Shown piece by piece: positions 1,215 through 17,301 of a stretch of DNA of 17,604 nt (positions are counted from its first letter, which is position 1; every line of letters begins with the position of its first letter). Source of the stretch: an uncultured Candidatus Bathyarchaeia archaeon (GTDB lineage Archaea; Thermoproteota; Bathyarchaeia; Bathyarchaeales; Bathycorpusculaceae); NCBI GenBank assembly GCA_964450845.1, contig CAYVGZ010000027.1:1-17604 (forward strand), given 5' to 3'. Below the pieces are notes generated by a model. The model was given only the letters and a program-made list of their open reading frames with translations, did not search any database and was not told where the DNA came from. Both the position numbers and the translations under genes were made by a program.

Positions 1215-2780
1215 TTAGATAGCTTCCCTCAAGAGTTCAACAATGTCTTTCACTGCAATCTTATTTTCTACATCCAATACCTTAACAGCATCTTCCAAGG
1301 TCGTCATACAGAACGGGCAAGCCACAGCTATGGTGTCAACATTGAGTTCTAATGCCTCTTTAACTCGGTCTACACTAGGCCTCTTTTCAGGAGTTGCCTC
1401 CTCTGTCCACACCCTTCCTGCTCCGCCACCACAGCAGAAACTGCTTTCTCTTGTTCGCTTCATTTCAACAAGTTCTAAGCCATTTATCGACTGCAAAATC
1501 TGTCTTGGTTCATCGTAAATTTCGTTGCGTTTACCTAAAAAGCATGGGTCGTGATAGGCAACTCTTTTCTTAACTGGTTTTGTGGGTTTTATTTTGCCCT
1601 GTTTGATGGCTTCAGCCAAGAATTGCGTGTAATGTTGAACGTTTAGTTTTTCGTCAGCGTATGGCTTATCATTTTTGAATGTATTGTAACAGTGCGGTGA
1701 CAACGTGACGATTTTTTCCGCATTGAATTTTTTGAACATTTCTATGTTGTGAAGGGCAAGTTCTTCGAACAATCCTTTTTCGCCCATTCTTAGCATATGG
1801 TCTCCACAACACCATTCTTCAGTGCCCAACGTAGCAAAGCTAACTCCTAAGCTGTTGAACATTAAAGCCATAGCTCTGGCAATTTCCATGTTTCTCGCAT
1901 CGTAAGTTGTCGAACAGCAAGTGAAGTACAGAACATCAGCCTTTGTAACTGTTGGAAACGTGTCAACGTTCAAGCCCTTAGCCCAATCCATTCTCTTACT
2001 CTGATGCGTTCCCATTGGGTTGTGGTATTTGTAGACGCTTTCCAGAACATCTTTAACAGTTCTCGGAATGTTTCCAGCTTCTACCAGAAGGCAGTGGTCA
2101 TCAACTATCGAGTTTGCGCAGCCAACGAGTTTGGGACAGAACAACGTGCATGAGTTACACTGGGTGCACAGCCAAATGTTGTCTGCCATGGGCTTTAATC
2201 GTTCGTCGCAGCCTGCGTCTCTTGAATCTGCGATGAATCGGTAATTAGCTGTTAATGCTGCAGGTCCGAGAAATCTTTCATCTATTGCGGCTGGACATGC
2301 TGAGTAGCAGATTGAGCATTTTGTACATAAAGTTAAGTCCCAGTATTTTTTGAGGTCAGTTGGCACTTGAGTAAATTCTTCGGTTTTCTTGAAGGCTTCT
2401 TCTGGCTTTATTAGTAACGTTTTGATTTTCTTAAATTTATCAAAGAAAGGTTCGATGTCAACCACTAAGTCTTTTATAACTGGCATGTTTGCTAGCGGTT
2501 CAATAGTTAAGGAGTCAACTCCGAGGTCAAGTACTTGCGTGTAACAGGCTAGCATGGGTTTTCCGTTAACATTTATTCCGCAGCTTCCGCAAATTCCAAA
2601 TCTGCACGAATGCCTAAAAGTGAGGGTCTCGTCAAGGTTGTCTTTAATGTATATGAGACCATCAAGCAACGTGTTTCCCATGCGAACTGGAACCTTGTAC
2701 GTTGAGAAATAGCGCCTTTTGCTTTCAGGGTCGAATCGAAGAATCTTAAATTCAACAATCTTCTCAACTTTAGAGTTCAT
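1215..2780 (-). CDS. tfrB: Succinate dehydrogenase/fumarate reductase Fe-S subunit fused to two CCG (HdrD-like) domains; thiol:fumarate reductase subunit B-like
   Basis: N-terminal SdhB/FrdB: CRFGICGSC...MLAC ([2Fe-2S]), CTKCSICYSACP, CTQCNSCTLFCP. C-terminal ~270 aa: YFTCC...WCCGD...SPHC and YHDPC...CCGGG...ACPFC (CCG domains). RBS AGGTGA lies 4 nt upstream. The symbol reflects architecture only; activity is unproven. Confidence 0.85.
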   Translation of the reverse strand: MNSKVEKIVEFKILRFDPESKRRYFSTYKVPVRMGNTLLDGLIYIKDNLDETLTFRHSCRFGICGSCGINVNGKPMLACYTQVLDLGVDSLTIEPLANMPVIKDLVVDIEPFFDKFKKIKTLLIKPEEAFKKTEEFTQVPTDLKKYWDLTLCTKCSICYSACPAAIDERFLGPAALTANYRFIADSRDAGCDERLKPMADNIWLCTQCNSCTLFCPKLVGCANSIVDDHCLLVEAGNIPRTVKDVLESVYKYHNPMGTHQSKRMDWAKGLNVDTFPTVTKADVLYFTCCSTTYDARNMEIARAMALMFNSLGVSFATLGTEEWCCGDHMLRMGEKGLFEELALHNIEMFKKFNAEKIVTLSPHCYNTFKNDKPYADEKLNVQHYTQFLAEAIKQGKIKPTKPVKKRVAYHDPCFLGKRNEIYDEPRQILQSINGLELVEMKRTRESSFCCGGGAGRVWTEEATPEKRPSVDRVKEALELNVDTIAVACPFCMTTLEDAVKVLDVENKIAVKDIVELLREAI

Positions 2781-2795
2781 ATACGTTCACCTTTC

Positions 2796-4496
2796 CTAAT
2801 ATTTTCTTTCAACTGGAGGCCACTTAGTTATCTTGGCTGGAACATACTCAAGACGAGGTCCTTCTTTTGTGCAGTAGGCGAGAGAGTGTTTTAACCAGTT
2901 TTCATCGTCCCGCTTCGGGTAATCACGCCTTGAATGGGCTCCTCTCGACTCTGTTCTGGCAAGCGCACCGACTATAGTTACTTCTGCAAGGTCTAACATG
3001 AAGTCAAGTTGCAGGGCTGAAGTAAATGCGGTGTTAAAGGTTTTGCCTTTGTCTTCAACCTTTATTTTCCTGAATCTTTGTTTGAGTTCCCTTATTTCTT
3101 TCAAGGCGCTCTCAAGCTGGTCGCCTCTCCTGAAAATCCAAACCTTCGTGTTCATAACCCGCCTCATCTCATCTCTGAGGCCAGGCACTCTTTCATCGCC
3201 TTCGCTGCCCAAGATTCCGTCAAAGATCCTCTTCTCTTCTGCTAAAAGTTTTTCATGTGAGATTTCATAAAAACTGCTAGACAAAGCGCATTTTGCAGCT
3301 TCCTCTCCAGCAACCGCTCCGAAAACTAGACAATCAATCGTCGAATTTGTGCCAAGTCTGTTTGCTCCATGAACGCTGATACACGAGCATTCGCCAGCAG
3401 CATAAAGTCCTGAAATCGGCGTTTCAGCTTTAACGTTAGCGCGGATTCCGCCCATTGCGTAGTGAGCTGCTGGTCTGATAGGTATCGGCTCCTTGACAGG
3501 GTCCACTCCCCCAATTTTTATTGCGACCTCGCGGATGAGGGGCAGCCTCTCGTTTATCTTCTCCTCGCCTAAATGCGTAATGTCTAAAGCTATGTAAGGT
3601 CCAAATGGTCCTGCTAACCCACGTCCTTCCAAGATTTCTGTTTCCTCTGCCCTAGCGACTACGTCCCTAGGGGCCAGCTCCATTCTTTGTGCTGCATAGT
3701 TTTTCATGAAACGCTCACCCTTGGCGTTGAGTAAGTATCCTCCTTCGCCTCGAGATCCTTCGGTTATCAGCACTCCAGAGGGAACCAGACCTGTGGGATG
3801 AAATTGGACAAACTCCATATCCATTAGTGGTGCTCCAACACGGTAAGCCATAGCCATTCCGTCGCCTGTGGATGCGTGGGAGAAGGTTGTAAATTCGTAC
3901 ATGCGTTGGTAGCCGCCAATCGCCATTATTATGGCTTTAGTTTGGAAAGCTTGCATTTCGCCAGTTTTTTGTTCTATTGCTGTCAAGCCTACGGCTCTGT
4001 TGTCTTTAACTATTATAGAGGTGACAAACCATTCGTCGTAAAACTTTATGTTACCATGGGACGTGGCTTTTCCATACAATGTGTGCATTTCATGAAAGCC
4101 CGTCATATCAGCTGCGAAGCATGCCCGTGGGAAGCTATGTCCGCCGAATGGGCGTTGGTCTATTTTTCCGTCGGGAGTGCGGCTCCATGGACATCCCCAA
4201 TGCTCCATTAAAATAATTTCCTTTGGTGCTTGTCTGACAAAAAAATCTACAACATCTTGGTCTGCTAGATAGTCTGCTCCTTTAACGGTGTCAAAGGCAT
4301 GCAAATCGTATGAATCTTTCTCCCTTAAAACAGCCGCTGTTCCGCCTTGTGCACACACAGAGTGCGAGCGGATGGGGTGAAGTTTAGAAATTACAGCTAT
4401 GTCTAGTTTATTGCTGACTTCAGCAGCAGCAACTGCAGCTCTAAGACCCGCTAAGCCAGCTCCTACAATAACTATGTCGTGTTTATATTCTTCCAT
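2796..4496 (-). CDS. sdhA: Succinate dehydrogenase/fumarate reductase flavoprotein subunit (SdhA/FrdA/TfrA)
   Basis: GAGLAG FAD-binding motif, [10 protein letters not shown] (covalent-FAD His), [43 protein letters not shown] upstream. Confidence 0.95.
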
Positions 4497-4647: not shown

Positions 4648-6159
4648 ATGTTTAAGAAAATCTTGGTTGCCAATCGTGGAGAGATTGCAATTAGAGTGAT
4701 TAGGGCTTGTAAGGAACTAGAAGTGAAGACAGTTGCGGTTTACTCCCAGACCGATGCTGAATCTCTGCATGTTCAGTATGCAGACGAATGCCATTGCATA
4801 GGCCCAGCAGAACCCACCCAAAGCTACCTAAACATTGGCAAAATAATTGAATTGGCTAAGAAATCAGAGTGTGAGGCCATACATCCCGGTTATGGATTTC
4901 TCTCTCAGATACCAACCTTCGCAGAGGCATGTGAGGAAAATAGCTTAGAATTCATCGGACCTCCAAGTAGGGTTTTACAAAAGATGGGTTGCAAAGTGGA
5001 AGCCCGCAAAATTGCTGTCAAGGCTGGGGTTCCAATAGTCCCGGGAAGCATAGAACCTGCTAAAAGCATGGATGACGCTATGGAAGTGGGGGAAAAGGTC
5101 GGATATCCTGTTCTTGTTAAGGCTGTCTATGGTGGCGGGGGAAAAGGTATGCGAATAGTCACGAATGAGAATGAGATGCAACGAACATTGGAACTTGCAG
5201 CCTCAGAAGCTGAAAGCTCCTTCGGAAGTCGAGAAATTTACGTGGAAAAATTCCTTCCAAAAGTAAGACACATAGAATTTCAAGTTTTAGCTGACAAAAC
5301 TGGAAAAGTTATTCACCTTGGAGAACGGGAATGCTCAATTCAAAGAAGATACCAAAAGCTCATTGAAGAAACTCCATCCCCATTCATGACAGAAGAGCTG
5401 AGGAGAGAGATGGGAGAGGCTGCTGTAAAAATTGCAAATGCCGTAAACTACATCAACGCGGGAACAGTTGAGTTCTTAGTTGAACAAGATAAAAACTACC
5501 ATTTCTTGGAGATGAACACTAGGCTTCAGGTTGAGCACCTCATCACCGAGATGGTGACGGGTATAGACATTGTGAAAGCTCAGATCAAAATAGCGGCTGG
5601 CCAAAAACTTGAGCATGAGCAAAGCGATGTCGTCATGAGAGGACATGCAATAAACTGCAGGGTCAATGCTGAAGACCCATACAACAATTTCATGCCAAGC
5701 CCTGGAACAGTAACGAAGTTCCAACTGCCGGGAGGGCCTGGAGTAAGAGTTGACACTCACCTGTACGCTGGCTACTCCATTTCGGTTTTCTACGACCCAT
5801 TGATAGTGAAGCTTGCTGTTTGGGGGTCGAACCGTGGCGAGGCTATACAAAAAATGAGGAATGCCTTAAACGAGCTCGTAATAGAAAGTGTGAAAACTAC
5901 CATTCCTTTCCACAAGAAAATCATGGAAGACGAAGGCTATCTCAAGGGAGATATTTACATAAACTTTGTTGAGGAAAGAATTGGAGAGGTTCTACCAAAA
6001 TGTGCTTTAGAGGATGAGGAGGCCGCTGCAATAGTTGCAGTTTTGGCTGATCAAATAGAAAGAAGAGGTGTTCAAGCAGTTATTCCGAGAAGGGAGCCTA
6101 GGGCAGTTTCCCTTTGGAGACTTGCCGGTAGGACAAGGAGACTGGAGAGAACGCGTTGA
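4648..6159 (+). CDS. accC: Biotin carboxylase subunit (AccC/PycA/PccA-N type) with a C-terminal docking-tail extension
   Basis: MFKKILVANRGEIA, HPGYGFLS, KAVYGGGGKGMR, ERECSIQRRYQK, FLEMNTRLQVEH, RVNAEDP, GVRVD, YDPLIVKL. The ATP-grasp BC core is ~450 aa, followed by a ~50 aa tail. Confidence 0.96.
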   Translation: MFKKILVANRGEIAIRVIRACKELEVKTVAVYSQTDAESLHVQYADECHCIGPAEPTQSYLNIGKIIELAKKSECEAIHPGYGFLSQIPTFAEACEENSLEFIGPPSRVLQKMGCKVEARKIAVKAGVPIVPGSIEPAKSMDDAMEVGEKVGYPVLVKAVYGGGGKGMRIVTNENEMQRTLELAASEAESSFGSREIYVEKFLPKVRHIEFQVLADKTGKVIHLGERECSIQRRYQKLIEETPSPFMTEELRREMGEAAVKIANAVNYINAGTVEFLVEQDKNYHFLEMNTRLQVEHLITEMVTGIDIVKAQIKIAAGQKLEHEQSDVVMRGHAINCRVNAEDPYNNFMPSPGTVTKFQLPGGPGVRVDTHLYAGYSISVFYDPLIVKLAVWGSNRGEAIQKMRNALNELVIESVKTTIPFHKKIMEDEGYLKGDIYINFVEERIGEVLPKCALEDEEAAAIVAVLADQIERRGVQAVIPRREPRAVSLWRLAGRTRRLERTR

Positions 6160-6698
6160 CGATCCAAGAGGTTTTGGTGAACAGAAAACCGCACAAGGTC
6201 AAGGTTTTGGAGAGAAATGGAAACATCTTTACACTAGAGGTGAACGAGAAAACAGTCAACGTAAAATTCAAGAACATGGTTCAAGGTAAAACAGCAATAT
6301 TGGAGATTAACGATAAAACTTTTCAACCAAGTGTTGAGAGAATTCAAGGGAACGTTCTTCAAATTAAAATAGGCGGAAAACTTTTCGAAGTTCAATTTCA
6401 ACCTAAAATCCCAAAAGAATCGAATGCAAAGCATGAGCCTATAGTTACTATTGCGAAAAAACCAGCAATAGGTTTGGTAATAGAAAAAGACGCTGTGGCT
6501 GCTCCAATTGCGGGCAGAATCGTGCTGCTTAGGGCTAACGTTGGGCAAAAGGTTGAAAGAGGCGAGTGTGTCTGCATCTTGGAAGCCATGAAAATGCAGA
6601 ACGAAATAACCGCACCTAAGGCAGGAGTTGTCAAGGAATTTAGGGTTTCCAAAGGAGCTATTGTAAACAAAGGAGACATTTTAGCAGTTATTAGCTAG
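6156..6698 (+). CDS. Biotin carboxyl carrier protein 1 (N-terminal four-hairpin beta domain + biotinyl domain)
   Basis: The TTG start overlaps the BC stop (TTGA). Biotinylation motif EAMKMQNEI has its Lys codon at 6591-6593. APIAGRIV precedes it and the gene ends GDIL. Confidence 0.93.
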   Translation: MTIQEVLVNRKPHKVKVLERNGNIFTLEVNEKTVNVKFKNMVQGKTAILEINDKTFQPSVERIQGNVLQIKIGGKLFEVQFQPKIPKESNAKHEPIVTIAKKPAIGLVIEKDAVAAPIAGRIVLLRANVGQKVERGECVCILEAMKMQNEITAPKAGVVKEFRVSKGAIVNKGDILAVIS

Positions 6699-6729
6699 AA
6701 GCAACTGCTTTTACTGAAAAGTAGGTTAG

Positions 6730-7092
6730 GTGTGGAATGTGGCTAAATGGCTGAGGCGAATTCTGGGCACATGGGCGTTTCTCCTTTTAATTAATGGGTC
6801 TGCGTTAGGTTATTTGATTGTTAGTTTATTTTTTATTCCTAATGTTTGGGGAGTTTTAATCGGTTCGAGCGTAATGGCTCTTGGTTTTTGTTGGTATTAT
6901 GTACGGTATGTTAAGAAAAAGCAGCCGCGGTATCCCTTGGTGGCACCTGAGGGGAAGGCTGATTTTTATCTTCCAAGAACCAAAATTCCGAGACCTGTGT
7001 ATGCAGATTTTCGTGAGATTGAGGAGAAAAAGCGGAAGCTTGCTAAGGTTAAGAAGTTGGCTCGAAAGAAGGTCGTTCGGAAGAAAAAATAG
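6730..7092 (+). CDS. Hypothetical membrane protein (two predicted TM segments, Pro-rich linker, Lys/Arg-rich tail)
   Basis: GTG-start 120-aa ORF fills the gap between BCCP-1 and mce on the same strand. It has hydrophobic stretches TWAFLLLINGSALGYLIVSLFFIP and VWGVLIGSSVMALGFCWYY and the basic tail KKRKLAKVKKLARKKVVRKKK. No family recognised. Confidence 0.7.
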   Translation: MWNVAKWLRRILGTWAFLLLINGSALGYLIVSLFFIPNVWGVLIGSSVMALGFCWYYVRYVKKKQPRYPLVAPEGKADFYLPRTKIPRPVYADFREIEEKKRKLAKVKKLARKKVVRKKK

Positions 7093-7182
7093 CGCGCTAT
7101 CTTTCTCTGTGACTAGACCCTTCCTTATAAATGGATCGAACTTCTGGTAGTTTGTGAGTTAGAACTTCTTTGTTTTTGATTC

Positions 7183-7197
7183 AGAAAGTTTTTAATA
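7183..7197 (+). promoter_or_regulatory. Putative BRE+TATA promoter for mce-birA
   Basis: AGAAAGTTTTTAATA lies about 45-58 nt upstream of the TTG at 7241 and matches the typical archaeal BRE/TATA pattern. Confidence 0.5.
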
Positions 7198-7240
7198 ACG
7201 TGTTTAGTATGGCTTTATTCTGAATAGGAGTAGATTTAGA

Positions 7241-7645
7241 TTGTTTGTTGGTGTTGACCATGTTGGTGTTGCCGTGCGGAATTTGGATGAGGCTATAAGC
7301 GTTTACCGAGATGTTTTGGGTTTCAAGCTTGAGAGTGTTCATGTTTTAACGGAGCGAAAGGTTAGAGTGGCTTTTCTCTCCACTGGCGGAGAAACTAGCA
7401 TTGAGCTTTTGGAGCCTATTGGCAACGACAGCCCAGTTGCAAAGTTTCTTGAAAGTCGTGGAGAAGGCATTCAACATTTGGCTATGAAGGTTAAGAATAT
7501 TGAAGCGGTTTTGGCTGAACTTAAACGGAAAGCCGTGGTGCTTGTTGATGATAAGCCTAGGGCTGGCGCCGAAGGCACAAAAATTGCTTTTGTTCATCCA
7601 AAGAGCACGAAGGGCGTGCTTTTGGAACTTGTTGAAAAGCCGTAG
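7241..7645 (+). CDS. mce: Methylmalonyl-CoA epimerase (VOC family)
   Basis: VDHVGVAV, IELLEP, FLESRGEGIQHLA, GAEGTKIAFVHPKSTKGVLLELVE. TTG start with GGAG upstream. Confidence 0.95.
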   Translation: MFVGVDHVGVAVRNLDEAISVYRDVLGFKLESVHVLTERKVRVAFLSTGGETSIELLEPIGNDSPVAKFLESRGEGIQHLAMKVKNIEAVLAELKRKAVVLVDDKPRAGAEGTKIAFVHPKSTKGVLLELVEKP

Positions 7646-7647
7646 GT

Positions 7648-8445
7648 TTGTTGATGAATGTGAATGTGGACAGGCTTCAGGAAGGCTTACGCACTAAACG
7701 TTTTGGTAGGAACATTCTTTTTTTGCGTAAGGTTGGTTCTACGAATGATTTGGCTAAAGAGTTGGCTGGTTATGGGGCTGCTGAAGGAACGGTTGTGGTT
7801 GCGGAGACACAAACTGCTGGGCGTGGAAGGCTTGATAGAGAATGGGTTTCGCCTAAAGGCGGTTTGTGGTTTTCTGTTGTTCTTAAACCTGAACTTAAAC
7901 CTGCAGAGGCTGTTAGGCTTGTGTTTGTGGCTGGTTTAGCTGTGGCTGAGGTTTTGCATGAACTGTATAGGGTGAGGGTGGAGACGAAGTGGCCTAACGA
8001 TGTAGTGATGAAGGGGCGCAAAGTTTGCGGCATACTCACAGAAATGAACACGACGGGCGAAAAAGTCAATTATGTCACAGTAGGGGTTGGAGTTAACGCG
8101 AACCTTGATGTGGAAAAGGTTTTTCCTGAAGATTTGAGAACGGTTGCTACTTCGCTTGAAAATGAGCTTGGCAGAAAGGTTGGGTTAGAAGAATTGTTTA
8201 AGGCGTTGCTTGAGAGGTTGGAAAATATTTATGGGTTGTTTTTGGAGGAAGGTTTTGCTTCAGTTCTGGGGAAATGGAAAAAGTATGCGGGCTTTTTAGG
8301 TTGTCAAGTGGAAGTGACAAGTGGAACTGAGAAATGGGTTGGGCTCGCATCTGATGTTGGGAATGACGGGGCTTTGGTTATGAGGTTGGAAGATGGAACG
8401 GTGAAGCGTGTTTTCGTTGGGGATGCTGCTCTGCGGTCAAAATGA
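7648..8445 (+). CDS. birA: Biotin-protein ligase (group I, no N-terminal HTH)
   Basis: STND, QTAGRGRLDREWVSPKGGLWFS, KWPNDV, KVCGILTE, GVGVN. The start could be TTG 7648/7651 or ATG 7654. Confidence 0.95.
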   Translation: MLMNVNVDRLQEGLRTKRFGRNILFLRKVGSTNDLAKELAGYGAAEGTVVVAETQTAGRGRLDREWVSPKGGLWFSVVLKPELKPAEAVRLVFVAGLAVAEVLHELYRVRVETKWPNDVVMKGRKVCGILTEMNTTGEKVNYVTVGVGVNANLDVEKVFPEDLRTVATSLENELGRKVGLEELFKALLERLENIYGLFLEEGFASVLGKWKKYAGFLGCQVEVTSGTEKWVGLASDVGNDGALVMRLEDGTVKRVFVGDAALRSK

Positions 8446-8459
8446 GCAGTTATTTTTAT

Positions 8460-9230
8460 TTAGGGTCTTTTTCCAGTGATGTAGAAGCCGCGTTTTTCGA
8501 GTTGTTCAAGCAGTTCTTTTGGTTTTGGGTGCCATTGTCCCCATTTTCTGCAGATGTGTTCAGTCCAGCTATAGTTGTCATGCGTGAACGTTTCTTTGCG
8601 ATGTGCTCGTAATGGTATTTTTGCATTCATTTTTCTGTAATAGTCCTGTGCTAAATAGCCTTCATCCATTTGCTTCATGGCTTTTGACACTATTTTTTCG
8701 TCTAATTTTGGATATTTGTCTTCGAATAGTGTGAATTCCATGGGATAACGTGGTCGTGGCGGCGGATCTTCTGCTGGATAACCCATTACAAGCTGCACCA
8801 AGGGGAACACTCTTTTTGGTAGGCTATATTCTTCTGCGATTTTGTCAGCTCGGTACATTGCGCTTCCGAGGAAGCAACTTCCAAGTCCGAGGCTTCTGCC
8901 TGCGACTACCATGTTTTCTGCCATGTAAGCAGCGTCTTGAATTCCGAAGAACAGTAGCGTTAGGTCGTTTGTGGCTAGTTTCCATTTTCTTTTAGCCATG
9001 ATCAGTTCGAACTTGTGAGAATCTATGCAAATCGTGAATAAGAGCGGGGCTTTGAATGGGTTGCGTTTTTTGTTTCGTGACAATAATACGCTGTAATATT
9101 GCGAAGCGAACGGCGCTTGTTGACCTGCTCTGACGATTGTTTCTATTATTTCGTCTGATGGTGTTTCGTCTGTGTATTTTCGGATTGACTTATGCTCAAG
9201 CATGGTTTGAATAACAAGATTCTTCTTCAT
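8460..9230 (-). CDS. Nitroreductase/flavin reductase family protein (NfrA-like)
   Basis: HKSIRKY FMN-binding motif, DAAYMAENMVVAGRSLGLGSCFLG, LVMGYPAEDPPPRPRYP, plus a C-terminal extension. Confidence 0.88.
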   Translation of the reverse strand: MKKNLVIQTMLEHKSIRKYTDETPSDEIIETIVRAGQQAPFASQYYSVLLSRNKKRNPFKAPLLFTICIDSHKFELIMAKRKWKLATNDLTLLFFGIQDAAYMAENMVVAGRSLGLGSCFLGSAMYRADKIAEEYSLPKRVFPLVQLVMGYPAEDPPPRPRYPMEFTLFEDKYPKLDEKIVSKAMKQMDEGYLAQDYYRKMNAKIPLRAHRKETFTHDNYSWTEHICRKWGQWHPKPKELLEQLEKRGFYITGKRP

Positions 9231-9268
9231 GACATCATCGTCTTTACGCCTAAATCCAACATTCTGCA

Positions 9269-9283
9269 GATATATGAGTTTCC
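9269..9283 (-). promoter_or_regulatory. Putative BRE+TATA promoter for the nitroreductase gene
   Basis: The minus strand reads GGAAACTCATATATC about 40-53 nt upstream of ATG 9230. Confidence 0.4.
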
Positions 9284-9337
9284 GTATGTCCTAAATATCC
9301 GTTCAAGCAATAATACCCAATAACTTGAGGAGTTCGA

Positions 9338-10906
9338 ATGACCGCGATAAAGGAACCTTCGGTTGATGATAAGATTAAGCGTTTACGCGAATTAAACGAA
9401 CAAGCCAAACTGGGCGGCGGACAAAAACGAATTGAAGACCAACACGCTAAAGGCAAGTTAACAGCCAGAGAACGCATCGAGCTATTACTTGACCCAGGCA
9501 GTTTTAACGAGCTTGACCAGTTCGTTGTGCATCAATGCACCGAATTTGGTATTGGTGAAAAGAAATTCCTCGGCGACGGCGTCGTAACAGGCTACGGCAC
9601 AATAGACGGCAGACTCGTCTACGTCTTCAGTCAAGACTTCACAGTCTTCGGCGGTTCACTCGGCGAAATGTTCGCAAAAAAAGTCTGCAAACTCATGGAT
9701 TTAGCCTTAAAAACAGGCGCACCCGTCATAGGCTTAAACGATTCAGGCGGAGCACGCATACAAGAAGGCGTAGCAAGCCTCGCGGGCTACGGTGACATAT
9801 TCTTCCGAAACGTCATAACTTCAGGCGTCGTACCGCAAATAAGCGCAATTATGGGTCCATGTGCAGGCGGAGCCGTCTATTCTCCAGCCCTAACAGACTT
9901 TATAATTATGGTGGATAAGACAAGCCACATGTTCATCACAGGCCCAGACGTAGTTAAAGCAGCATTAGGGCAAGAAGTCACTTTCGAAGAGCTCGGCGGG
10001 GCAATGGTTCACAGTCAAACAAGCGGCGTAGCGCATTTCATTGAAAAAGACGAACAACACTGCATACAGCTAATCAAGAAACTCTTAGGCTATTTGCCAA
10101 GCAATTATTTGGAAGACCCGCCAACAATAGAGCCAACAGACGACCCAAACAGAACAGACGAAACCTTGGCTCACATACTTCCAGACGACCCAGACAAGCC
10201 CTACGACGTTAAAGAAATCATAACACGCTTAGTAGACAACGGCGAATTCTTCGAAATCCAGCCCCTCTGGGCACAAAACATCGTGATCGGCTTCGCACGT
10301 TTAAATGGCAAAACCATAGGCATAGTAGCCAACCAACCCGCACACTACGCTGGCGCATTAGACATACATAGCAGCATGAAAGCTGGCCGTTTCATACGCT
10401 TCTGCGACTGCTTCAACATCCCAATAATCACATTCGTAGATGTGCCGGGCTTTCTGCCAGGTCTAGAACAGGAACACGGCGGCATAATCAAACACGGGTC
10501 AAAACTATTGTACGCTTACTGTGAAGCAACAGTGCCAAAAATCACTGTGATACTCCGCAAAGACTATGGCGGTGCTTACGATGTAATGGGTAGCAAACAC
10601 AGCGGAGCAGACATAAACTACGCATGGCCAACAGCCGAAATAGCCGTAATGGGACCGCACGGAGCAATAAACATAATCTTCCGCAAAGAAATCGCCGAAG
10701 CCACCGATCCGGAACAAAAACGCGTGGAACTTGTAAGTGAATATCGCCAAAAATTCGCAAGCCCTTACATAGCAGCACAGAAAGGCTACATAGACGAAGT
10801 AATAGAACCTGCCCAAACCCGACCCAAACTAATCAGCGCTCTGGAAAGCTTAACCACAAAACGCGAACCAAGACCAATGCGAAAACATGGAAACGTACCA
10901 TTATAA
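9338..10906 (+). CDS. pccB: Acyl-CoA carboxylase carboxyltransferase subunit (PccB / MmdA / transcarboxylase 12S type)
   Basis: [99 protein letters not shown] upstream. Confidence 0.96.
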
Positions 10907-10943
10907 GTCAATTGAAAAAACAAAAACCACTGGTGTTCTGGTG

Positions 10944-11741
10944 ATGGACAGAAAAAGGTTGACCCGTGACATAATAATCCAAACGCTTGTGAATGCCTTA
11001 AAACCGCTCGATTATGTCCACACCTTTTATGAGGGAGGCGCCGCTGCCTTCAACCGAATTGATGAATGGTCCGACATCGACCTCTATCTAGTCGTAGACG
11101 ACGAAAAAGTCAATGAGGCATTCCTAGCAGCCGAAAAAGCATTAAAATCGTTATCATCTATCAAGCAAAAGTTTGATGTGCAGCAAACTGGCTGGCCAGG
11201 TGTCTTTCAGGCTTTTTACAGGTTGGAAGACGCAAGTGAGTATCTTATCATTGACCTTTGTGTTTTGAACTTCAGCGGTTCAGAAACGTTTTTGGAGCCA
11301 GAGATACATGGTAACGTCGTGTTCTACTTCAACAAATCTGGTAAGATTAAGCCTCCGCAATTGGATAGGGAAGCACTAGTCAAGAAAGTGCACGCGAGAT
11401 TTGATAGATTGCAGGCAAGGTTTGCCATGTTCAACAACTTCGTGCAAAAGAAGATCAACAGAGGTCATCTTCTTGAAGCCATAGACCTGTATCACGGTCT
11501 TACCCTTGCCACGCTAGTTGAAGCTTTGCGGATTAAACACAATCCTATACATTACAATTTCAAGATGGAATATCTGCATTACGAGCTTCCATCCGACGTA
11601 ATCAAGAGACTTGAGCATCTATACTTTGTCAAAGACGCGAAGGATCTGCAAGAAAAATACTACGAGGCAACCGAGTGGTTCCATAGGATAATTCAGGAGA
11701 TCGATCAAAAGGAAATAGAAAGGCTAATAGGAATACGATAG
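10944..11741 (+). CDS. Pol-beta superfamily nucleotidyltransferase with a C-terminal helical domain (LinB/AadK-like architecture)
   Basis: EGGAAAFNRIDEWSDIDLYLVV is the G[G/S]...DxD NTase motif, with a third acidic residue in IIDL. Helical C-terminus contains KKINRGHLLEA. The start was moved from the track's 10887 (overlaps pccB) to ATG 10944; GTG 10941 is also possible. Confidence 0.75.
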   Translation: MDRKRLTRDIIIQTLVNALKPLDYVHTFYEGGAAAFNRIDEWSDIDLYLVVDDEKVNEAFLAAEKALKSLSSIKQKFDVQQTGWPGVFQAFYRLEDASEYLIIDLCVLNFSGSETFLEPEIHGNVVFYFNKSGKIKPPQLDREALVKKVHARFDRLQARFAMFNNFVQKKINRGHLLEAIDLYHGLTLATLVEALRIKHNPIHYNFKMEYLHYELPSDVIKRLEHLYFVKDAKDLQEKYYEATEWFHRIIQEIDQKEIERLIGIR

Positions 11742-11753
11742 GGCTTGTGCGTG

Positions 11754-12104
11754 TTAGAATAAGATTTCTTTATTCATCTTTACCTTGTCATTCTCGATTG
11801 GTACGCCTTCTTTTTCTACGAGCTTCCTTCTAGACTCAGCGGCATTTCTTTCTCCTCCGAATCCACCGTCACACCTGACAACGCGATGGCATGGAACAAT
11901 TGGGTGAAGCGGATTTTTGTGTAACGCATTAGCAACAGCCCGATAAGCGTGTGGTTTGCCGATTTTTTCTGCTATTCTCTTGTATGTGCTGACTTTTCCA
12001 TGTGGAATCTTGAATGTGGCGACCAAAACTTTCTTTTCAAATTCTGTCTTGTTAGATAAGAAACGTCTAACATCTTCTTCCGTTTTAACTGCATCTTTAT
12101 CCAT
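11754..12104 (-). CDS. ogt: O6-methylguanine-DNA methyltransferase family protein (single DNA-binding/catalytic domain)
   Basis: IPHGKVSTY, RAVANAL, NPLHPIVPCHRVV with the active-site Cys. The likely start is ATG 12104 (MDKDAV) rather than 12125. Confidence 0.88.
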   Translation of the reverse strand: MDKDAVKTEEDVRRFLSNKTEFEKKVLVATFKIPHGKVSTYKRIAEKIGKPHAYRAVANALHKNPLHPIVPCHRVVRCDGGFGGERNAAESRRKLVEKEGVPIENDKVKMNKEILF

Positions 12105-12174
12105 TAAGCATCCCCATTTACACATTTAGGGAATTTGAATCTCTTATAAGTCTTTAAATTTCTCTTTAATCATT

Positions 12175-12888
12175 CTAATATTCAACGATTTTGGGCAGTT
12201 TCTTGGCTTCTGCAATAGTAGACTCGAGTTCTTTTGGCAATGGAGCTATTCCTTCAAAGCCTGTTCTCTCAACAAACTTGATAAGCATAACTCTAAGCTC
12301 TTCTGGATTCCACTTAGCCAGTTTCTCGATTGAATCAACACCTGCATCATAGTAAAGCCTTGCCCGAATGCCCTTTACACCTTGGATTCGAGCCAAATCT
12401 GACAGTTTAACAAGCTCCAGAATGGCTTCTGCTGGCACTCCAGTCTTCGCTGATAGCTCCTTTCTTTTGTCTCTTGTTCGTCCTGCCTCCAACATTTGCT
12501 TCACGTTTTTAATGCCTATACTCGCAAGTTTTTTAACATGTTCTTGACTGACTCCTCGGAACTCCTTCAGCGCAAAAGGTGCTTTCTCTATTCTTTTACC
12601 TCTCAATTCTCTTGCACATTCGTGCATCTCCTTGTTAGAGGTATACTCGTAGTAATAGCGAATCCCCCACAAGCATAGCTTAGCAGACTCGTTTCGCTCT
12701 TCTTCAAACCATGACACAAATGCTTCAAGATCTTCTGGACATGCCTTGTCTAATCCTTTGCGACCTCTTTTCTCTTGCAAATATTGCTCAAACTCAGTTA
12801 CGTATACAATAACCCGTCTGACCACACTTGGAGACCGCACACCTCGTTTTAAGAATTTCCGAAAGCCTTCTTCATCCACTTTTCTCAC
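12175..12888 (-). CDS. DUF4332-type helix-hairpin-helix protein with an N-terminal integrase SAM-like (core-binding) domain
   Basis: The C-terminal half (LKEFRGV...LASIGI...LSDLARIQGVKGIRARLYYDAGVDSIEKLA...LPKIVEY) fits DUF4332 from memory. The N-terminal ~85 aa (FRKFL...SPSVVRRV...FEQYL...EDLEAFV...LWGIRYYYEY) follows the integrase N-terminal SAM-like pattern. No recombinase catalytic domain. Confidence 0.7.
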   Translation of the reverse strand: MRKVDEEGFRKFLKRGVRSPSVVRRVIVYVTEFEQYLQEKRGRKGLDKACPEDLEAFVSWFEEERNESAKLCLWGIRYYYEYTSNKEMHECARELRGKRIEKAPFALKEFRGVSQEHVKKLASIGIKNVKQMLEAGRTRDKRKELSAKTGVPAEAILELVKLSDLARIQGVKGIRARLYYDAGVDSIEKLAKWNPEELRVMLIKFVERTGFEGIAPLPKELESTIAEAKKLPKIVEY

Positions 12889-13011
12889 ACGCCCTTACTA
12901 CGTTTGCGTTATCTTGTCGAATAAAGCTATTTCTTGACACCTAAATGAATTAATATGGCTTCACCTACCCTTTCTAATCTCAAATTCAATCTATATATAA
13001 GGGGGGTCTAG

Positions 13012-14559
13012 ACGCCTAAGAGCAAACCAGTCAAAATCACCGACACAACACTTCGCGACGCACACCAATCTTTAATGGCTACGAGAATGCGCACAGACGC
13101 TATGCTTCCCATAGCTGAAAAAATCGACCAAGTAGGCTTCTTCTCGCTAGAAATGTGGGGAGGAGCAACATTCGACGTTGCAATCCGCTTCTTAGCCGAA
13201 GACCCGTGGGAACGAATCCGCACTTTGAAACGTCACATAAAGCGAACACCCTTTCAAATGTTACTGCGTGGACAAAATGTTGTTGGCTACCACAACTATC
13301 CAGACGACATCGTCATAAAATTCGTAGAAAAAGCCGCCGAAAACGGCATCGACATATTCCGCGTTTTCGACGCTTTAAACGACATAAGAAACATGGAAGT
13401 AGCTATAAAAACAGTAAAAAAAACTGGCAAACACGCCCAAGGAACCATCTGCTACACAATCAGCCCAGTCCACACAATAAAATACTACGTGGAAACCGCC
13501 CAAAAACTAGCCCAACTTGACTGCGACTCCATCTGCATCAAAGACATGGCTGGAATGCTCGCACCACAACCGGCATACGAACTCATAGCTGCACTAAAAA
13601 AGAAAGTTGGGCTTCCCGTACATTTACACTCTCACAGCACAAGCGGCATGGTCATGATGACTTACCTCCGCGCATGCGAAGCAGGCGTAGACATAATCGA
13701 CACAGCCTTCTCGCCATTAGCTTGGGGCACTTCCCAGCCTCCAGTCGAATCTGTCGTAGCTGCCTTGAAAGGAACACCCTACGACCCAGGACTTGACATA
13801 GAACTCTTGAGCGAGATTGCAGATTACTTCCAAGAGCTACGAGAGAAATACTACGACCCACTAAAGCTTATCGACTCAAAAGCTGAAAGAGTTGACGCTT
13901 CCATTATCGTTCATCAAATTCCCGGCGGAATGTTCTCTAACCTTCTTGAACAGCTGAAAGAGCAGAAAGCGCTCGGCAGACTGAAGGAAGTTCTTGAAGA
14001 AGTTCCGAAAGTTAGAAAAGAGCTTGGTTATCCACCACTCGTAACGCCCACAAGCCAGCTCGTCGGCATACAAGCCGTGTGTAATGTTCTTTCAGGCAAA
14101 CGTTACAGCATTGTGCCAAAGGAGATAAAAGACTACGTGAAAGGCTTCTACGGAAAACCACCAGCTCCAATTAATCCGAAAGTGAAAAAGAAAATCATCG
14201 GCGACGAAGAACCCATAACATGCCGCCCAGCTGACCTTTTAGAGCCATCTCTCGACAAGATGCCAAGTGAAGCAAAATCCTACATTGAAAGTGAAGAGGA
14301 CAAACTAACCTATGCATTGTTTCCACAAACAGCCCTAGAATTCTTCAAGAGGAGAAAAGCCAAACGAGAAGAAGCTAAACCTGGAATCCCCCCTGAGAGA
14401 ATTGGCGAACTTGAAGAGGTCGCCGCAGTCTCGGTTGCAGTTGCCACCTACTTGACAAGCTCAAGCGGTGTAAAAGCGCTAATACTAGCAAAAACTAAAG
14501 CAGCCACATCATCTTGGGTATTAGCTGGTAGACAAAGCCTAGCTGATCATGGTGCATAA
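13012..14559 (+). CDS. Pyruvate/oxaloacetate carboxyltransferase (transcarboxylase 5S / PycB / OadA type) with a C-terminal docking tail and no fused biotinyl domain
   Basis: DTTLRDAHQSLMATRM, EMWGGATFD, QMLLRGQN, FRVFDALND, CIKDMAG, HLHSHST, QIPGGM, PPLVTP. The frame stays open upstream of the track's ATG (13075) to an in-frame TAG at 13009-13011. The catalytic DTTLRD motif lies in that upstream part, so the proposed start is ACG 13012. The product call is high confidence and the start is uncertain. Confidence 0.9.
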   Translation, partial: TPKSKPVKITDTTLRDAHQSLMATRMRTDAMLPIAEKIDQVGFFSLEMWGGATFDVAIRFLAEDPWERIRTLKRHIKRTPFQMLLRGQNVVGYHNYPDDIVIKFVEKAAENGIDIFRVFDALNDIRNMEVAIKTVKKTGKHAQGTICYTISPVHTIKYYVETAQKLAQLDCDSICIKDMAGMLAPQPAYELIAALKKKVGLPVHLHSHSTSGMVMMTYLRACEAGVDIIDTAFSPLAWGTSQPPVESVVAALKGTPYDPGLDIELLSEIADYFQELREKYYDPLKLIDSKAERVDASIIVHQIPGGMFSNLLEQLKEQKALGRLKEVLEEVPKVRKELGYPPLVTPTSQLVGIQAVCNVLSGKRYSIVPKEIKDYVKGFYGKPPAPINPKVKKKIIGDEEPITCRPADLLEPSLDKMPSEAKSYIESEEDKLTYALFPQTALEFFKRRKAKREEAKPGIPPERIGELEEVAAVSVAVATYLTSSSGVKALILAKTKAATSSWVLAGRQSLADHGA

Positions 14560-14561
14560 AA

Positions 14562-15116
14562 GTGCCTGTTTACGAAATTTTCATAGACAGCAAACCCCGA
14601 AAAATCGAACTGAAAAAGACTGGAGAAAACTTTTTCACAGTTAAAATAGACAGCAAGTCCCTCAGCATAGAATTACCATCCGACAAGCTCAACCTAGAAA
14701 AGCTTTCCTCCATAAAAATAGATGGAAAAACATACCACATAGAATTGCCCAGAATCGATTGGGAAAAACTCTTTCCCGTCAAGGTTGAAGAAATCACATT
14801 CAAAGCTGAAGTAAAAACTTCCACAAAGAAACCAACATTAACAGCTTTTGAACCAGTCCCCTTAACACCCACAAAGAAAACTATGGCGACAAAACAAGTT
14901 GTCGAAGGCACCATAACAGCGCCAATGACAGGAAAAATCCTCTCAGTTAAAGTCAAGAAAGGAGATCAAGTGGAACTTGACCAAGTTGTCTGCATCCTTG
15001 AAGCTATGAAAATGGAAAACGAAATTACGGCGCCCAAGGCTGGAACCATTCGAGAAGTGTATGTTTCAGAGGGTTCATCGGTGAGTGAAGGCGAACCCCT
15101 TTTCATAGTTGACTAG
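14562..15116 (+). CDS. Biotin carboxyl carrier protein 2 (N-terminal four-hairpin beta domain + biotinyl domain)
   Basis: GTG start 2 nt after the CT stop. APMTGKIL precedes the biotinylation motif EAMKMENEI (Lys codon 15009-15011). The gene ends GEPLF. Confidence 0.94.
14574..14813 (+). repeat. Four degenerate ~21-24 codon intragenic repeats in BCCP-2
   Basis: Protein level: [13 protein letters not shown] / [13 protein letters not shown] / [13 protein letters not shown] / [16 protein letters not shown] level: ATAGACAGCAA at 14583 and 14646, CATAGAATT at 14666 and 14738. Confidence 0.7.
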
Positions 15117-16792
15117 AAGATGGAAGGCGGTTTATACTCGCCAAAAACTTCGCGTAAAGTGTCACATATTTCGCCGAGGGTTACATACTCCTTTACTGAT
15201 TGAAGTATGAAGGGCATGAGGTTCACGTTTTCTTGTTCTGCTGCTCTACGCAGCTTGTTTAGGGCTTCGTCCACTTTAGCTTGGTTTCTTAGCGTTTTTA
15301 CCAGTTTTAGGCGTTCAACAAGCTTCTTCTCGATTTCAGGGTCTATTTGCAAAATCTTTATGGGAGCTTTTTCTTCAGTCGTGAACTCGTTCACGCCTAC
15401 GACTATTCGCTTTTTTGCTTCAACTTCCTTTTGGAAACGGTAGGCACTTTCCATAATCTCATGTTGCATGAAACCTTTTTCAATTGCGGCAACCGCTCCA
15501 CCCATAGCGTCAATTTGTTCGATATATTTTGCAGTTCTCTCTTCAATCTGATTTGTTAAATACTCCACGTAATATGAACCTGCAAGAGGATCAACAGTGT
15601 CGACTACTCCGCTTTCGTACGCTATAATCTGCTGAGTTCTGAGAGCAACTGTCACTGCTTGCTCGCTAGGTAAAGCATACGCCTCATCAAACGAGTTTGT
15701 ATGTAAAGACTGTGTTCCGCCTAAAACTGCTGCCAAAGCTTGAAGCGCCGTTCGAATAATGTTGTTGTAGGGTTGCTGAGCAGTGAGCAAGACGCCTGAG
15801 GTTTGAGTGTGGAAGCGCAACATCCATGAAGCAGGATTTTTGGCTTCGAAACGTTCACGCATGATCCTAGCCCATAATCTCCTTGCAGCTCTGAATTTGG
15901 CGATTTCTTCGAAGAAGTTGTTGTGAGCAGCGAAGAAAAAGGATAATCTGCCTGCAAACTTGTCTAAGTCTAAGCTCCTTTCAATTGCTGCCTGCACGTA
16001 GGCGATTGCGTTTGCAAATGTGAAGGCGATTTCTTGGACAGCAGTGGCGCCTGCCTCGCGGATGTGGTAGCCGCTTATACTGATGGTGTTCCACTGGGGC
16101 ATGTGCTTGGAGCAATGTTCGAAAATGTCCGTAACCAATCGCATTGAAGGCTTAGGTGGAAAAATGTACATGCCTCTAGCTACGTACTCCTTTAAAATGT
16201 CGTTTTGAACTGTTCCGCCAAGCTGAGACTGCTCAATGCCTTTTTTTTGTCCAACCGCAACATACATTGCAAGCAAAACATTTGTAGGAGCATTAATTGT
16301 CATAGAAGTTGTAATCTTGTCCAATGGTATTCCTTCAAAGACGATTTCCATATCTCGCAAAGTGCTTGCGCTTACCCCAGCCTTGCCGACCTCACCACGC
16401 GCCATTGGATGGTCACAGTCATATCCCACTTGAGTTGGAAAATCGAACGCTACGCTTAGCCCCTTTTGACCCTGCTCCAGCAGATATTTGAAGCGTTGGT
16501 TTGTCTGCTCAGCAGTGCCAAAGCCCGCATATTGCCTCATAGTCCATAATCTAGCCCGATACATTGTTGGATAAACGCCACGAATGAGCGGATATTCACC
16601 TGGAAATCCTAAATCCCGCACATAATCAAAATCTGCAATATCCAGCGGAGTATAGATTCGGTTGACCGGGACATTGGAGCTTGTGGAGAATTCACCTTTT
16701 TCAGGAAGCTTTTCGAGACTTTTCGACGCGATTTCTTTTTCCCAGCTCTCTTTGCTCTGCTTAATTTCTTTCAGTTTTTGCTTGTCAAACAA
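15113..16792 (-). CDS. mcmA: Methylmalonyl-CoA mutase large (substrate-binding) subunit, split type
   Basis: [70 protein letters not shown]. No DxHxxG B12-binding domain. TTG start with GGTG upstream. Confidence 0.95.
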
Positions 16793-17010: not shown

Positions 17011-17301
17011 TTGAAGGTGAAAGTAGAGTTCTTGGGTCACATCAGAAATATAATCGGTAGTGATCGAGAGGAAGAGGTTGAAATTAGCGAGGAAGCTTCA
17101 ATTGCTGATTTATTAACTAAGCTTTCCGAAAAATATGGAAATCCCTTCAAAAAAGCTGTTTACGAAAAAAGTGACACTGACGTAAAATCAAACTACATTA
17201 TCACAGTTAACGGTTATCTGCTTAACCAGTTAAAAGGGCTTGAGACTAAACTTAAAAACAATGATCATGTAACATTGTTGCCCATTGTAAGCGGTGGCTA
17301 G
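17011..17301 (+). CDS. moaD: MoaD/ThiS/SAMP ubiquitin-like (beta-grasp) protein
   Basis: MKVKVEFLGHIR..., ITVNG, and C-terminal LLPIVSGG diglycine. Confidence 0.92.
   Translation: MKVKVEFLGHIRNIIGSDREEEVEISEEASIADLLTKLSEKYGNPFKKAVYEKSDTDVKSNYIITVNGYLLNQLKGLETKLKNNDHVTLLPIVSGG

Follow-up and report, generated by a model that had tools for sequence, protein, structure and literature searches.

A biotin-enzyme gene cluster in a Bathyarchaeia archaeon that may connect pyruvate and propionyl-CoA with or without ATP

Can one set of biotin-dependent subunits move CO2 between pyruvate and propionyl-CoA both with and without ATP? The question is raised by a gene cluster on contig CAYVGZ010000027.1 (C27), all 17,604 bases of which were analysed (the window). 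The contig belongs to a Bathyarchaeia metagenome-assembled genome (MAG; G000) of 1.64 Mb in 120 contigs, which is 93.5% complete and 1.1% contaminated. The cluster encodes one biotin carboxylase (BC), one acyl-CoA carboxyltransferase (CT) of the PccB/MmdA/12S family, one pyruvate carboxyltransferase (PyrCT) of the PycB/OadA/5S family, two biotin carboxyl carrier proteins (BCCP-1 and BCCP-2), a BirA-type ligase, methylmalonyl-CoA epimerase and the large subunit of methylmalonyl-CoA mutase, and it adjoins a fumarate reductase. Genes were called from the open reading frame (ORF) listing and from Pfam and NCBIfam profile scans of the window proteins; these scans place every member of this inventory where the first-pass annotation had put it. 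Close homologues all carry Bathyarchaeia or Bathyarchaeota labels. Judged from gene content, the cell probably can move CO2 between the two compounds in both ways. We lean towards reading the cluster as one integrated system of propionyl-CoA carboxylase (PCC) and pyruvate carboxylase (PC) with three activities, the third being transcarboxylation.

By homology, BC loads biotin with CO2 at the cost of ATP, CT exchanges carboxyl groups with propionyl-CoA/methylmalonyl-CoA, and PyrCT does the same with pyruvate/oxaloacetate. One ATP-dependent BC, two carboxyltransferases and two carriers would then form an integrated biotin-enzyme system of the methylmalonyl-CoA pathway. BC and PyrCT would each hold a BCCP swinging arm by means of a C-terminal tail (a helix and a hook, of OadG/epsilon type); CT, having no arm of its own, would be served by the arms anchored on BC or PyrCT. 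Transfer from BC to CT would constitute PCC. Transfer from BC to PyrCT would constitute PC which, malic enzyme aside, would be the only route to oxaloacetate found in the genome. Transfer from CT to PyrCT through a common arm would be ATP-free methylmalonyl-CoA:pyruvate transcarboxylation. Together with malate dehydrogenase (MDH), fumarase, the TfrAB-type fumarate reductase, succinyl-CoA synthetase, mutase and epimerase, these reactions would link pyruvate to propionyl-CoA. Carbon could flow either towards propionate, as an electron sink, or from propionyl-CoA into oxidation or assimilation.

The genome carries a single copy each of BC, CT and PyrCT, and all three lie inside the window. Most of the partner genes named in the first-pass annotation were found elsewhere: succinyl-CoA synthetase (alpha and beta), a class I fumarase, a dehydrogenase of the MDH/LDH family (MDH-like), the B12-binding small subunit of the mutase and MeaB. 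The one that was not found in the genome search is an AcetylCoA_hydro-type CoA transferase. Because these partners are present, the genome can be said to encode a complete route from pyruvate/oxaloacetate through succinate and methylmalonyl-CoA to propionyl-CoA, a Wood-Werkman-type gene set. The B12-binding subunit and MeaB follow a second large subunit of the mutase family, which is split over two contig ends (C31:5-862 and C90:1-2024; L003, L009); most cluster-bearing Bathyarchaeia have two such large-subunit paralogues. Within the window's family, genomes devoid of the carboxylase genes have no mutase either. Three ADP-forming acyl-CoA synthetase genes and a malic enzyme gene are also present. 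Neither phosphoenolpyruvate carboxylase (PEPC; archaeal or bacterial) nor phosphoenolpyruvate carboxykinase (PEPCK; either type) was found in the genome search.

The fumarate reductase (1215-4496, minus strand) has a TfrAB-type architecture without a membrane anchor gene. The best full-length NCBIfam match of its Fe-S subunit is TfrB (NF004898), at 315 bits, which is under the cut-off of 385. An anchorless reductase of this type would favour fumarate reduction as an electron sink over succinate oxidation.

The window has no OadB, as had been noted in the first-pass annotation, and this extends well beyond the window. The 93.5%-complete genome gave no OAD_beta match (OadB, PF03977), and neither did the genomes of families f1-f7 (the window's family and families listed as belonging to the same order) in a class sample of 151 Bathyarchaeia genomes with completeness of at least 80%. 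The search was positive above cut-off, at full score, in 22 other Bathyarchaeia.

The genes had also been described as clustered. They are all present, but they are not contiguous: five unrelated genes interrupt them, namely the small ORF, the nitroreductase, the nucleotidyltransferase-like ORF, the MGMT-type protein and the DUF4332 protein (Table 1). The neighbourhoods of 20 Bathyarchaeia loci were mapped with the window proteins. In the closest relatives outside the genus (G071 and G008) the genes form an uninterrupted co-directional operon, BC-BCCP1-epimerase-BirA-CT-PyrCT-BCCP2; the mutase is convergent downstream in both, and in G071 the fumarate reductase is divergent upstream. Loci L047 and L048 have the identical order, except that a single nitroreductase gene interrupts it in L047. 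The genus of the window is also represented by two independent assemblies (L044 from JGI and L045 from ENA), which share the window order and most of the inserted genes. Comparison of these orders indicates that the five interrupting genes are later insertions and that the cluster is an eroded operon. CT and PyrCT are 2.1 kb apart in the window, with three inserted genes between them; in each of the 12 Bathyarchaeia loci whose map covers this part, CT, PyrCT and BCCP are neighbouring genes. The placement of the flavoprotein relative to BC is kept in G071 and L044, and that of the mutase large subunit in G071, G008, G114 and L044. In G008 the BC gene (L029 13178-14538) is broken into a 316-residue ORF and a 161-residue ORF that overlap, through either a frameshift or faulty assembly; the rest of that operon is intact.

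The core genes are found with different partners across the class. Of the genomes in the sample, 16 have PyrCT, 41 have CT, 22 have BC and 23 have OadB. Families f1, f4, f5 and f6 of the window's order have PyrCT, CT and BC without OadB (G000, G008, G058, G071, G108, G114); in f4 and f6 the BC-BCCP pair sits at a separate locus. Family f11 has the order BCCP-OadB-CT-adaptor-PyrCT-BCCP, with an OadG-like gene and no BC, which is a decarboxylase-type locus. Several other families have CT-BC-BCCP without PyrCT (PCC type). In genus g70, two genomes (G097 and G142) have CT-PyrCT-BCCP, and no BC was found in either by class scan or protein query. A third genome of this genus, G139, has CT-BC-BCCP instead (L032). 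About 1.2 kb of flanking sequence is common to this locus and the G142 locus (L031), at 76% identity. The CT of G139 shares no more than 69% identity with the CT of G097 and G142. The pattern resembles an exchange of the entire carboxylase module as a cassette. Throughout the Bathyarchaeia loci CT has no BCCP of its own, while BC, OadB and PyrCT each have one. The CT-PyrCT-BCCP triad is joined to BC-BCCP, to BCCP-OadB, or to neither.

In G005 (L034 6082-12325; also L035 and L036) the f11 locus encodes an OadG-like protein, BCCP, OadB, CT, a 147-residue coiled-coil adaptor, PyrCT and BCCP. It is apparently a dual-substrate Na+-decarboxylase (methylmalonyl-CoA and oxaloacetate) with two carrier proteins.

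Beyond the Bathyarchaeia, one scan of species-representative genomes gave 80 named loci in four context classes. The first has PyrCT fused to BCCP beside BC, the two-subunit pyruvate carboxylase of methanogens, Pseudomonas and Clostridia. The second has CT-(small transmembrane protein)-BCCP-OadB-PyrCT and is found in Oscillospiraceae and others. The third has CT-BCCP-PyrCT or CT-PyrCT-BCCP, with no BC or OadB nearby and often beside epimerase and mutase; its hosts include Hermodarchaeota, Thorarchaeota, Anaerolineae, Acidobacteriota, Peptococcaceae, Archaeoglobaceae and Bacillota. The fourth is a single Chloroflexia locus, CT-BC-BCCP-PyrCT-BCCP, which resembles the window. BC was not found genome-wide in seven of 15 triad genomes (Hermodarchaeota, three Thorarchaeota, Anaerolineaceae and two Bacillota), whose completeness is not known and in which OadB was not searched for. 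In the Hermodarchaeota locus (L051) the order is epimerase-BirA-CT-PyrCT-BCCP-mutase large subunit-mutase small subunit-MeaB. This triad and those of Thorarchaeota (L063, L076, L087) have the same PyrCT tail as the window and are candidate archaeal transcarboxylases.

BC and PyrCT share a C-terminal tail. PyrCT proteins of the window type extend about 75 residues past the catalytic domain, and BC extends about 50 residues past a standard AccC. The two tails align over 46 columns (hhalign probability 98.2%, E 5e-14); pairwise Smith-Waterman comparisons give z values of 9.5-15, with a score that was never equalled in 2000 shuffles. On these alignments the two tails are homologous. The first part is an alanine-rich amphipathic helix (EE-AA-x-S/A-x-A-x-A), which is followed after about 10 residues by a hook (V-x-A-x-IP-x-R ... 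S-x-W-x-LAGR). This two-part motif also ends the unfused PyrCT of Asgard archaea, Chloroflexota, Acidobacteriota and one Bacillota triad. Among the genomes in which BC was not found, tailed PyrCT triads are present in G097, in G142 and in the seven of 15 outside the Bathyarchaeia. The motif recurs in a free soluble protein of 90 residues, whose gene separates CT from BCCP in a Bacillota triad, in a protein of 108 residues that has a transmembrane helix and is encoded at an OadB locus, and in the f11 147-residue adaptor and f11 OadG-like protein. PycA of methanogens and Pseudomonas has the helix half only, at its C-terminus; unfused PyrCT of the OadB type has no tail.

The tail weakly resembles the OadG and epsilon adaptor subunits of biotin decarboxylases. 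Of 18 tails, four match Pfam OAD_gamma (PF04277) weakly (best E 0.002) and one matches ACC_epsilon. The PyrCT tail of the window itself has no Pfam match, and its NCBIfam match is at chance level (E 0.067). Comparisons of the tails with the f11 adaptor and OadG-like proteins are suggestive only (hhalign P 0.002-0.04 over 14-18 columns). Profile searches of PDB sequences with both tails gave chance-level matches only, and no solved structure matches. The partner of actinobacterial epsilon subunits is CT. In oxaloacetate decarboxylase the gamma C-terminus is described as tightly bound by the association domain that precedes the biotin domain (PMC2881705); by analogy, the tail would clamp the beta-rich N-domain of a BCCP. 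Whichever partner is bound, BC and PyrCT would use the same kind of docking site, and this argues for one integrated assembly.

The two carriers are distinct paralogues of about 180 residues each. In both, a disordered linker joins an N-domain of about 86 residues to a biotinyl domain. In an AlphaFold model of BCCP-2 (pLDDT 74.6) the N-domain has eight beta strands, and the biotinyl domain matches the Pyrococcus horikoshii BCCP (2d5d, Z 15.3) and the 1.3S domain (1dd2, Z 13.5); the structure search with the full-length protein is dominated by this domain. The N-domains align to the stretch between the CT and biotin domains in PycB/OadA family profiles. The N-domain of BCCP-1 matches PCC_BT (PF18140) with an E of 3.9e-4, under cut-off, at profile positions 35-111 of 126, which cover the barrel part only; the PCC-type BT domain is a helix plus an eight-stranded beta-barrel lying between BC and BCCP. 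An isolated N-domain was modelled poorly (pLDDT 52) and found only generic eight-stranded barrels (Z 5-7). The N-domain profile gave chance-level matches only against PDB sequences.

It might be expected that PyrCT itself would reveal the function of the system. Against PDB sequences it scores 550 bits to PC beta (5ks8_C), 524 to OadA (2nx9), 472 to 5S (1rqb) and at most about 338 to single-chain PC. A maximum-likelihood tree was built from 89 CT domains of this family (IQ-TREE quick search, LG+G4, SH-aLRT support); references from P. freudenreichii 5S, Vibrio and M. jannaschii were not included. PyrCT copies of the window type form a clade with support 96, whose sisters are the OadB-linked f11 copies (94). 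Both belong to a larger group (support 92) that also takes in methanogen PycB and one copy from Archaeoglobaceae. Copies from g70 are placed apart, with CT-linked copies from Acidobacteriota, Chloroflexota and Asgard archaea (support 95-97). All 34 PycB-type homologues in the tree have a fused BCCP. The phylogeny had been put forward as a means of separating the classes, and as such it fails: PycB-type, OadB-linked and CT-linked copies are interleaved, with at least 21 label changes over five classes. Specificity residues were rejected as a function test as well, since no alignment column of the 89 sequences splits the fused PycB-type copies from the CT- or OadB-linked ones. Three segments, HQSLMATRM, GKHAQGTICYTISPVHT and PQPAY, had been listed as matching the 5S subunit. 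The match is exact in the P. shermanii 5S chain (1rqb), and 5ks8 and 2nx9 have other residues in these segments. The three segments are not diagnostic of 5S, since the same variants occur in all classes among the 89 sequences and are family-wide. Sequence comparison thus indicates that PyrCT does not distinguish PC, oxaloacetate decarboxylase and transcarboxylase, and that its function is set by its partner subunits. This fits the shared pyruvate site chemistry of the three enzymes.

The transcarboxylase leg of the integrated system draws its support from the invariant CT-PyrCT-BCCP adjacency, from triads where BC was not found and from the shared tail. By its composition the triad has the subunits of a transcarboxylase. 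These observations, with the pathway genes and the lack of OadB, lend partial support to the earlier idea of a combined carboxylase and transcarboxylase; the 5S marks in PyrCT drop out of it.

Several points weigh against the integrated system, and in particular against its transcarboxylase leg. PyrCT scores higher to two-subunit PC beta and OadA than to 5S, its clade has OadB-linked copies as sisters and falls together with methanogen PycB, and no residue separates the functional classes. The tail profile has no match to the C-terminus of P. shermanii 5S, and the tail might bind either the BCCP N-domain or CT itself. The assignment of that N-domain as BT-like comes from one sub-threshold Pfam match and a generic beta-barrel model. 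Opposite-strand genes split the operon of the window into at least three transcription units. BC belongs to the ancestral operon, and malic enzyme provides an alternative C3/C4 link. G102 and G067 were down-weighted as proof of a BC-free system in the window's order: BC-BCCP lies on short contigs (3-8 kb) in three sister MAGs, so the absence of BC may be an assembly artefact, and the G067 cluster is cut at contig ends. Since BC is in the ancestral operon and neither PEPC nor PEPCK was found, ATP-dependent carboxylation of pyruvate and propionyl-CoA is at least as well founded as ATP-free transfer.

The same facts are used by the strongest alternative, which is possible but doubtful: two ordinary ATP-dependent carboxylases share one BC, transcarboxylation has no physiological relevance, and the genes are clustered only through their shared need for BC, BirA and biotin. 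One enzyme would be a three-subunit propionyl-/acetyl-CoA carboxylase (BC, BCCP-1 and CT) that feeds amino-acid-derived propionyl-CoA to succinyl-CoA; the other would be a pyruvate carboxylase with a split beta subunit (PyrCT and BCCP-2), serving anaplerosis. There is precedent in Actinobacteria, where one BC subunit is shared among several CTs. The genome's sole BC in the same ancestral operon, the closeness of PyrCT to 5ks8 and methanogen PycB, the missing PEPC and PEPCK, and the divergence of the BC-adjacent and PyrCT-adjacent BCCPs (about 30% identical) all agree with this explanation. It leaves unexplained why the invariant pair is CT and PyrCT, not BC and PyrCT, why the triad persists in genomes where BC was not found, and why PyrCT and BC end in the same docking tail. 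Moreover, if both carboxyltransferases can reach a common carboxybiotin arm, carboxyl exchange between them follows chemically.

A bolder version of the integrated system is a single hybrid holoenzyme, which is rather unlikely. A PccB-type CT core would carry BC:BCCP-1 and PyrCT:BCCP-2 through the same tail, so that one particle would catalyse all three reactions. BC, which is placed where sister lineages have OadB, might run in reverse when carbon flows towards propionate; it would then couple decarboxylation of methylmalonyl-CoA/oxaloacetate to ATP formation instead of to a Na+ gradient.

It is improbable that the triad (CT, PyrCT and BCCP-2) is a pure transcarboxylase, working in Wood-Werkman-type propionate fermentation or syntrophic-type propionate oxidation, and that BC-BCCP-1, having no interaction with PyrCT, is an acetyl-/propionyl-CoA carboxylase in its own right. 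The composition of the triad equals 12S + 5S + 1.3S, it has epimerase and mutase as neighbours, an arrangement also seen in the mmc clusters of syntrophic propionate oxidisers (PMC8892533), and BC-free triads occur in Asgard archaea and Bacillota. The homologous tails of BC and PyrCT argue for common partners, however. Without BC acting on PyrCT there would be no recognisable oxaloacetate-forming carboxylase besides malic enzyme, and the anchorless TfrAB-type reductase offers no obvious energy conservation for a Wood-Werkman fermentation.

A Na+-translocating oxaloacetate/methylmalonyl-CoA decarboxylase whose OadB/MmdB lies elsewhere or was missed, or a role in an autotrophic 3-hydroxypropionate/4-hydroxybutyrate-type cycle, is very improbable: the pump is suggested by the f11 loci, by mmdA as the top NCBIfam model of CT (under its cut-off) and by the weakly OadG-like tails, and PCC, epimerase and mutase do serve the archaeal cycle, but OAD_beta was found neither in the genome nor in the f1-f7 sample, and the cycle is unlikely because a search that detected the Sulfolobus control found no member of the 4-hydroxybutyryl-CoA dehydratase family (HpaB_N) in seven cluster-bearing genomes.

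How, then, does the integrated system compare with characterised enzymes? The P. freudenreichii transcarboxylase (EC 2.1.3.1; 12S, 5S and 1.3S, structures 1on3, 1rqb and 1dd2) has the same three kinds of subunit. CT scores 751 bits to 1vrg, 708 to PccB (1xnv; a further entry is 1xny), 687 to 1x0u and 618 to 12S (1on3); PyrCT is unfused and the carrier is separate, as in the transcarboxylase, and both are similar to its subunits as given above. The link to epimerase, mutase and fumarate reductase is also common to both, and CT, PyrCT and BCCP are adjacent genes in the window's relatives. Unlike the transcarboxylase, which is ATP-independent and defined without BC, the window cluster and the ancestral operon include a BC with all three domains. 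There are two carriers, each of about 180 residues including an additional N-domain of eight strands, compared with the 123 residues of 1.3S; PyrCT is no nearer to 5S than to PycB/OadA, and its OadG/epsilon-like tail has no detectable match in the 5S chain.

Another parallel in gene content is provided by the Pelotomaculum-type mmcH/I/J/L genes, which encode methylmalonyl-CoA decarboxylase alpha, epsilon and gamma subunits plus 5S and represent the transcarboxylase of syntrophic propionate oxidisers (PMC8892533). There, too, genes for an acyl-CoA CT, a small subunit of epsilon type, a BCCP and a CT of 5S type lie together with those for mutase, epimerase, succinyl-CoA synthetase, MDH and fumarase, and there is no membrane beta subunit. 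The window differs in having BC and an archaeal host, and the epsilon-like element is apparently fused to the C-termini of PyrCT and BC, not free.

The two-subunit pyruvate carboxylase (PycA and PycB; methanogens, Pseudomonas; 5ks8) likewise has a separate BC, its beta subunit 5ks8_C is the best solved relative of PyrCT, and its PycA ends in the helix half of the tail motif. PycB has a fused BCCP, whereas in the window the BCCP is a separate gene that follows PyrCT, and PyrCT has the full tail. In addition, the BC of the window is followed by its own BCCP, and in the window's relatives an acyl-CoA CT lies directly upstream of PyrCT. Split-alpha forms of oxaloacetate decarboxylase are attributed to Archaeoglobus fulgidus (Dahinden et al. 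2004, as cited in PMC8100219). The Na+ decarboxylases (OadABG, MmdABCDE) resemble the window in their unfused PyrCT and BCCP and in an OadG/delta/epsilon-like docking motif. Neither OadB nor a membrane-anchored gamma subunit was found here; the window cluster has no free OadG-like gene, only the soluble fused motif, and BC occupies the place of the pump module of relatives. Archaeal three-subunit acetyl-/propionyl-CoA carboxylases (AccA/AccB/PccB) share the adjacent BC and BCCP genes and a PccB-family CT, which in Sulfolobus is 1x0u; the acyl-CoA carboxylases of Actinobacteria have an epsilon subunit, and one tail has a weak ACC_epsilon match. The window differs from these acyl-CoA carboxylases in that its second CT is a pyruvate CT and in having a second BCCP.

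Every part of the cluster belongs to an established family, and clusters of the transcarboxylase type have been described from syntrophic propionate oxidisers (PMC8892533). A full-text literature search gave no description of this operon type in Bathyarchaeia. What appears to be undescribed so far is a BC in one operon with a transcarboxylase triad, the swapping of BC and OadB round a constant core, and the common tail of BC and PyrCT. Carboxylases, decarboxylases and transcarboxylases are usually treated as separate biotin enzymes, although modular catalysis is textbook knowledge. In this cluster and its relatives one carboxyl-transfer core (CT, PyrCT and BCCP) has been plugged into an ATP module, a Na+ pump module or neither, and the shared docking tail would be a concrete handle on how modules are assembled. 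Current annotations of PyrCT proteins are inconsistent ('oxaloacetate decarboxylase alpha', 'pyruvate carboxylase subunit B', 'pyruvate/oxaloacetate carboxyltransferase'). If the integrated system is real, it changes the reading of propionate and succinate metabolism in MAGs of Bathyarchaeia and Asgard archaea, which are abundant in sediments, and it offers a compact, ATP-optional carboxylation module for metabolic engineering. The evidence is genomic, and the interest lies mainly with specialists in biotin enzymes and archaeal metabolism.

Table 1. Features of the 17,604-base window and the profile matches or traits by which they were assigned.
Feature	Coordinates	Strand	Assignment and remarks
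Aldehyde:ferredoxin oxidoreductase	1-1056	-	Adjoins fumarate reductase
Fumarate reductase Fe-S subunit with two fused CCG (HdrB-like) domains	1215-2780	-	Pfam Fer2_3 + Fer4 + 2x CCG
Fumarate reductase/succinate dehydrogenase flavoprotein	2796-4496	-	FAD_binding_2 + Succ_DH_flav_C; NF004724 875 bits, over cut-off
BC, ATP-grasp	4648-6159	+	Biotin_carb_N, CPSase_L_D2, Biotin_carb_C; tail of ~46 residues at ~6001-6138
BCCP-1	6156-6698	+	Biotin_lipoyl; beta-rich N-domain, linker, biotinyl domain; EAMKM
Small ORF, 120 residues, two predicted transmembrane helices, very basic C-terminus	6730-7092	+	No family match
Methylmalonyl-CoA epimerase	7241-7645	+	TIGR03081 160 bits, cut-off 115
BirA-type biotin-protein ligase, catalytic type without repressor domain	7648-8445	+	BPL_LplA_LipB; TIGR00121 209 bits, cut-off 83
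Nitroreductase	8460-9230	-	
CT, PccB/MmdA/12S family	9338-10906	+	PF01039 682 bits
Nucleotidyltransferase-like ORF, 284 residues	10887-11741	+	Weak match; start overlaps CT end by 20 bases
MGMT-type DNA-binding-domain protein, 123 residues	11754-12125	-	That domain only (alkyltransferase-like)
DUF4332 protein	12175-12888	-	
PyrCT, without fused BCCP	13012-14559	+	PYC_OADA + HMGL-like; tail of ~46 residues at ~14398-14538
BCCP-2	14562-15116	+	Biotin_lipoyl; N-terminal beta domain, disordered linker, biotinyl domain; EAMKM
Methylmalonyl-CoA mutase large (substrate-binding) subunit	15113-16792	-	MM_CoA_mutase 763 bits; convergent on BCCP-2
ThiS-like gene	17011-17301	+	

The start of PyrCT is unusual. 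In the region 13009-13077 the frame opens with ACG at 13012, directly after a TAG stop, without any ATG, GTG or TTG ahead of the essential ITDTTLRDAHQS / metal-binding RD motif. The TAG-ACG arrangement is kept in L044 and L045, with a Shine-Dalgarno-like GGAGGGG or GGGGGG 7 nt upstream; in other genera PyrCT starts at TTG or ATG. Gene callers shorten the protein to 494 or 485 residues. Because dN/dS against the L044 and L045 assemblies comes to 0.09 and 0.08 for the entire frame with its N-terminal part, the gene is under purifying selection and probably starts at the non-canonical ACG codon.

The small ORF with two predicted transmembrane helices was considered as a missing membrane subunit and rejected: the nearest relative (L044) shares it, but neither L045 nor any other locus does, and it has no similarity to OadG or OadB. 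The nucleotidyltransferase-like ORF and the MGMT-type gene are both kept in L044 and L045.

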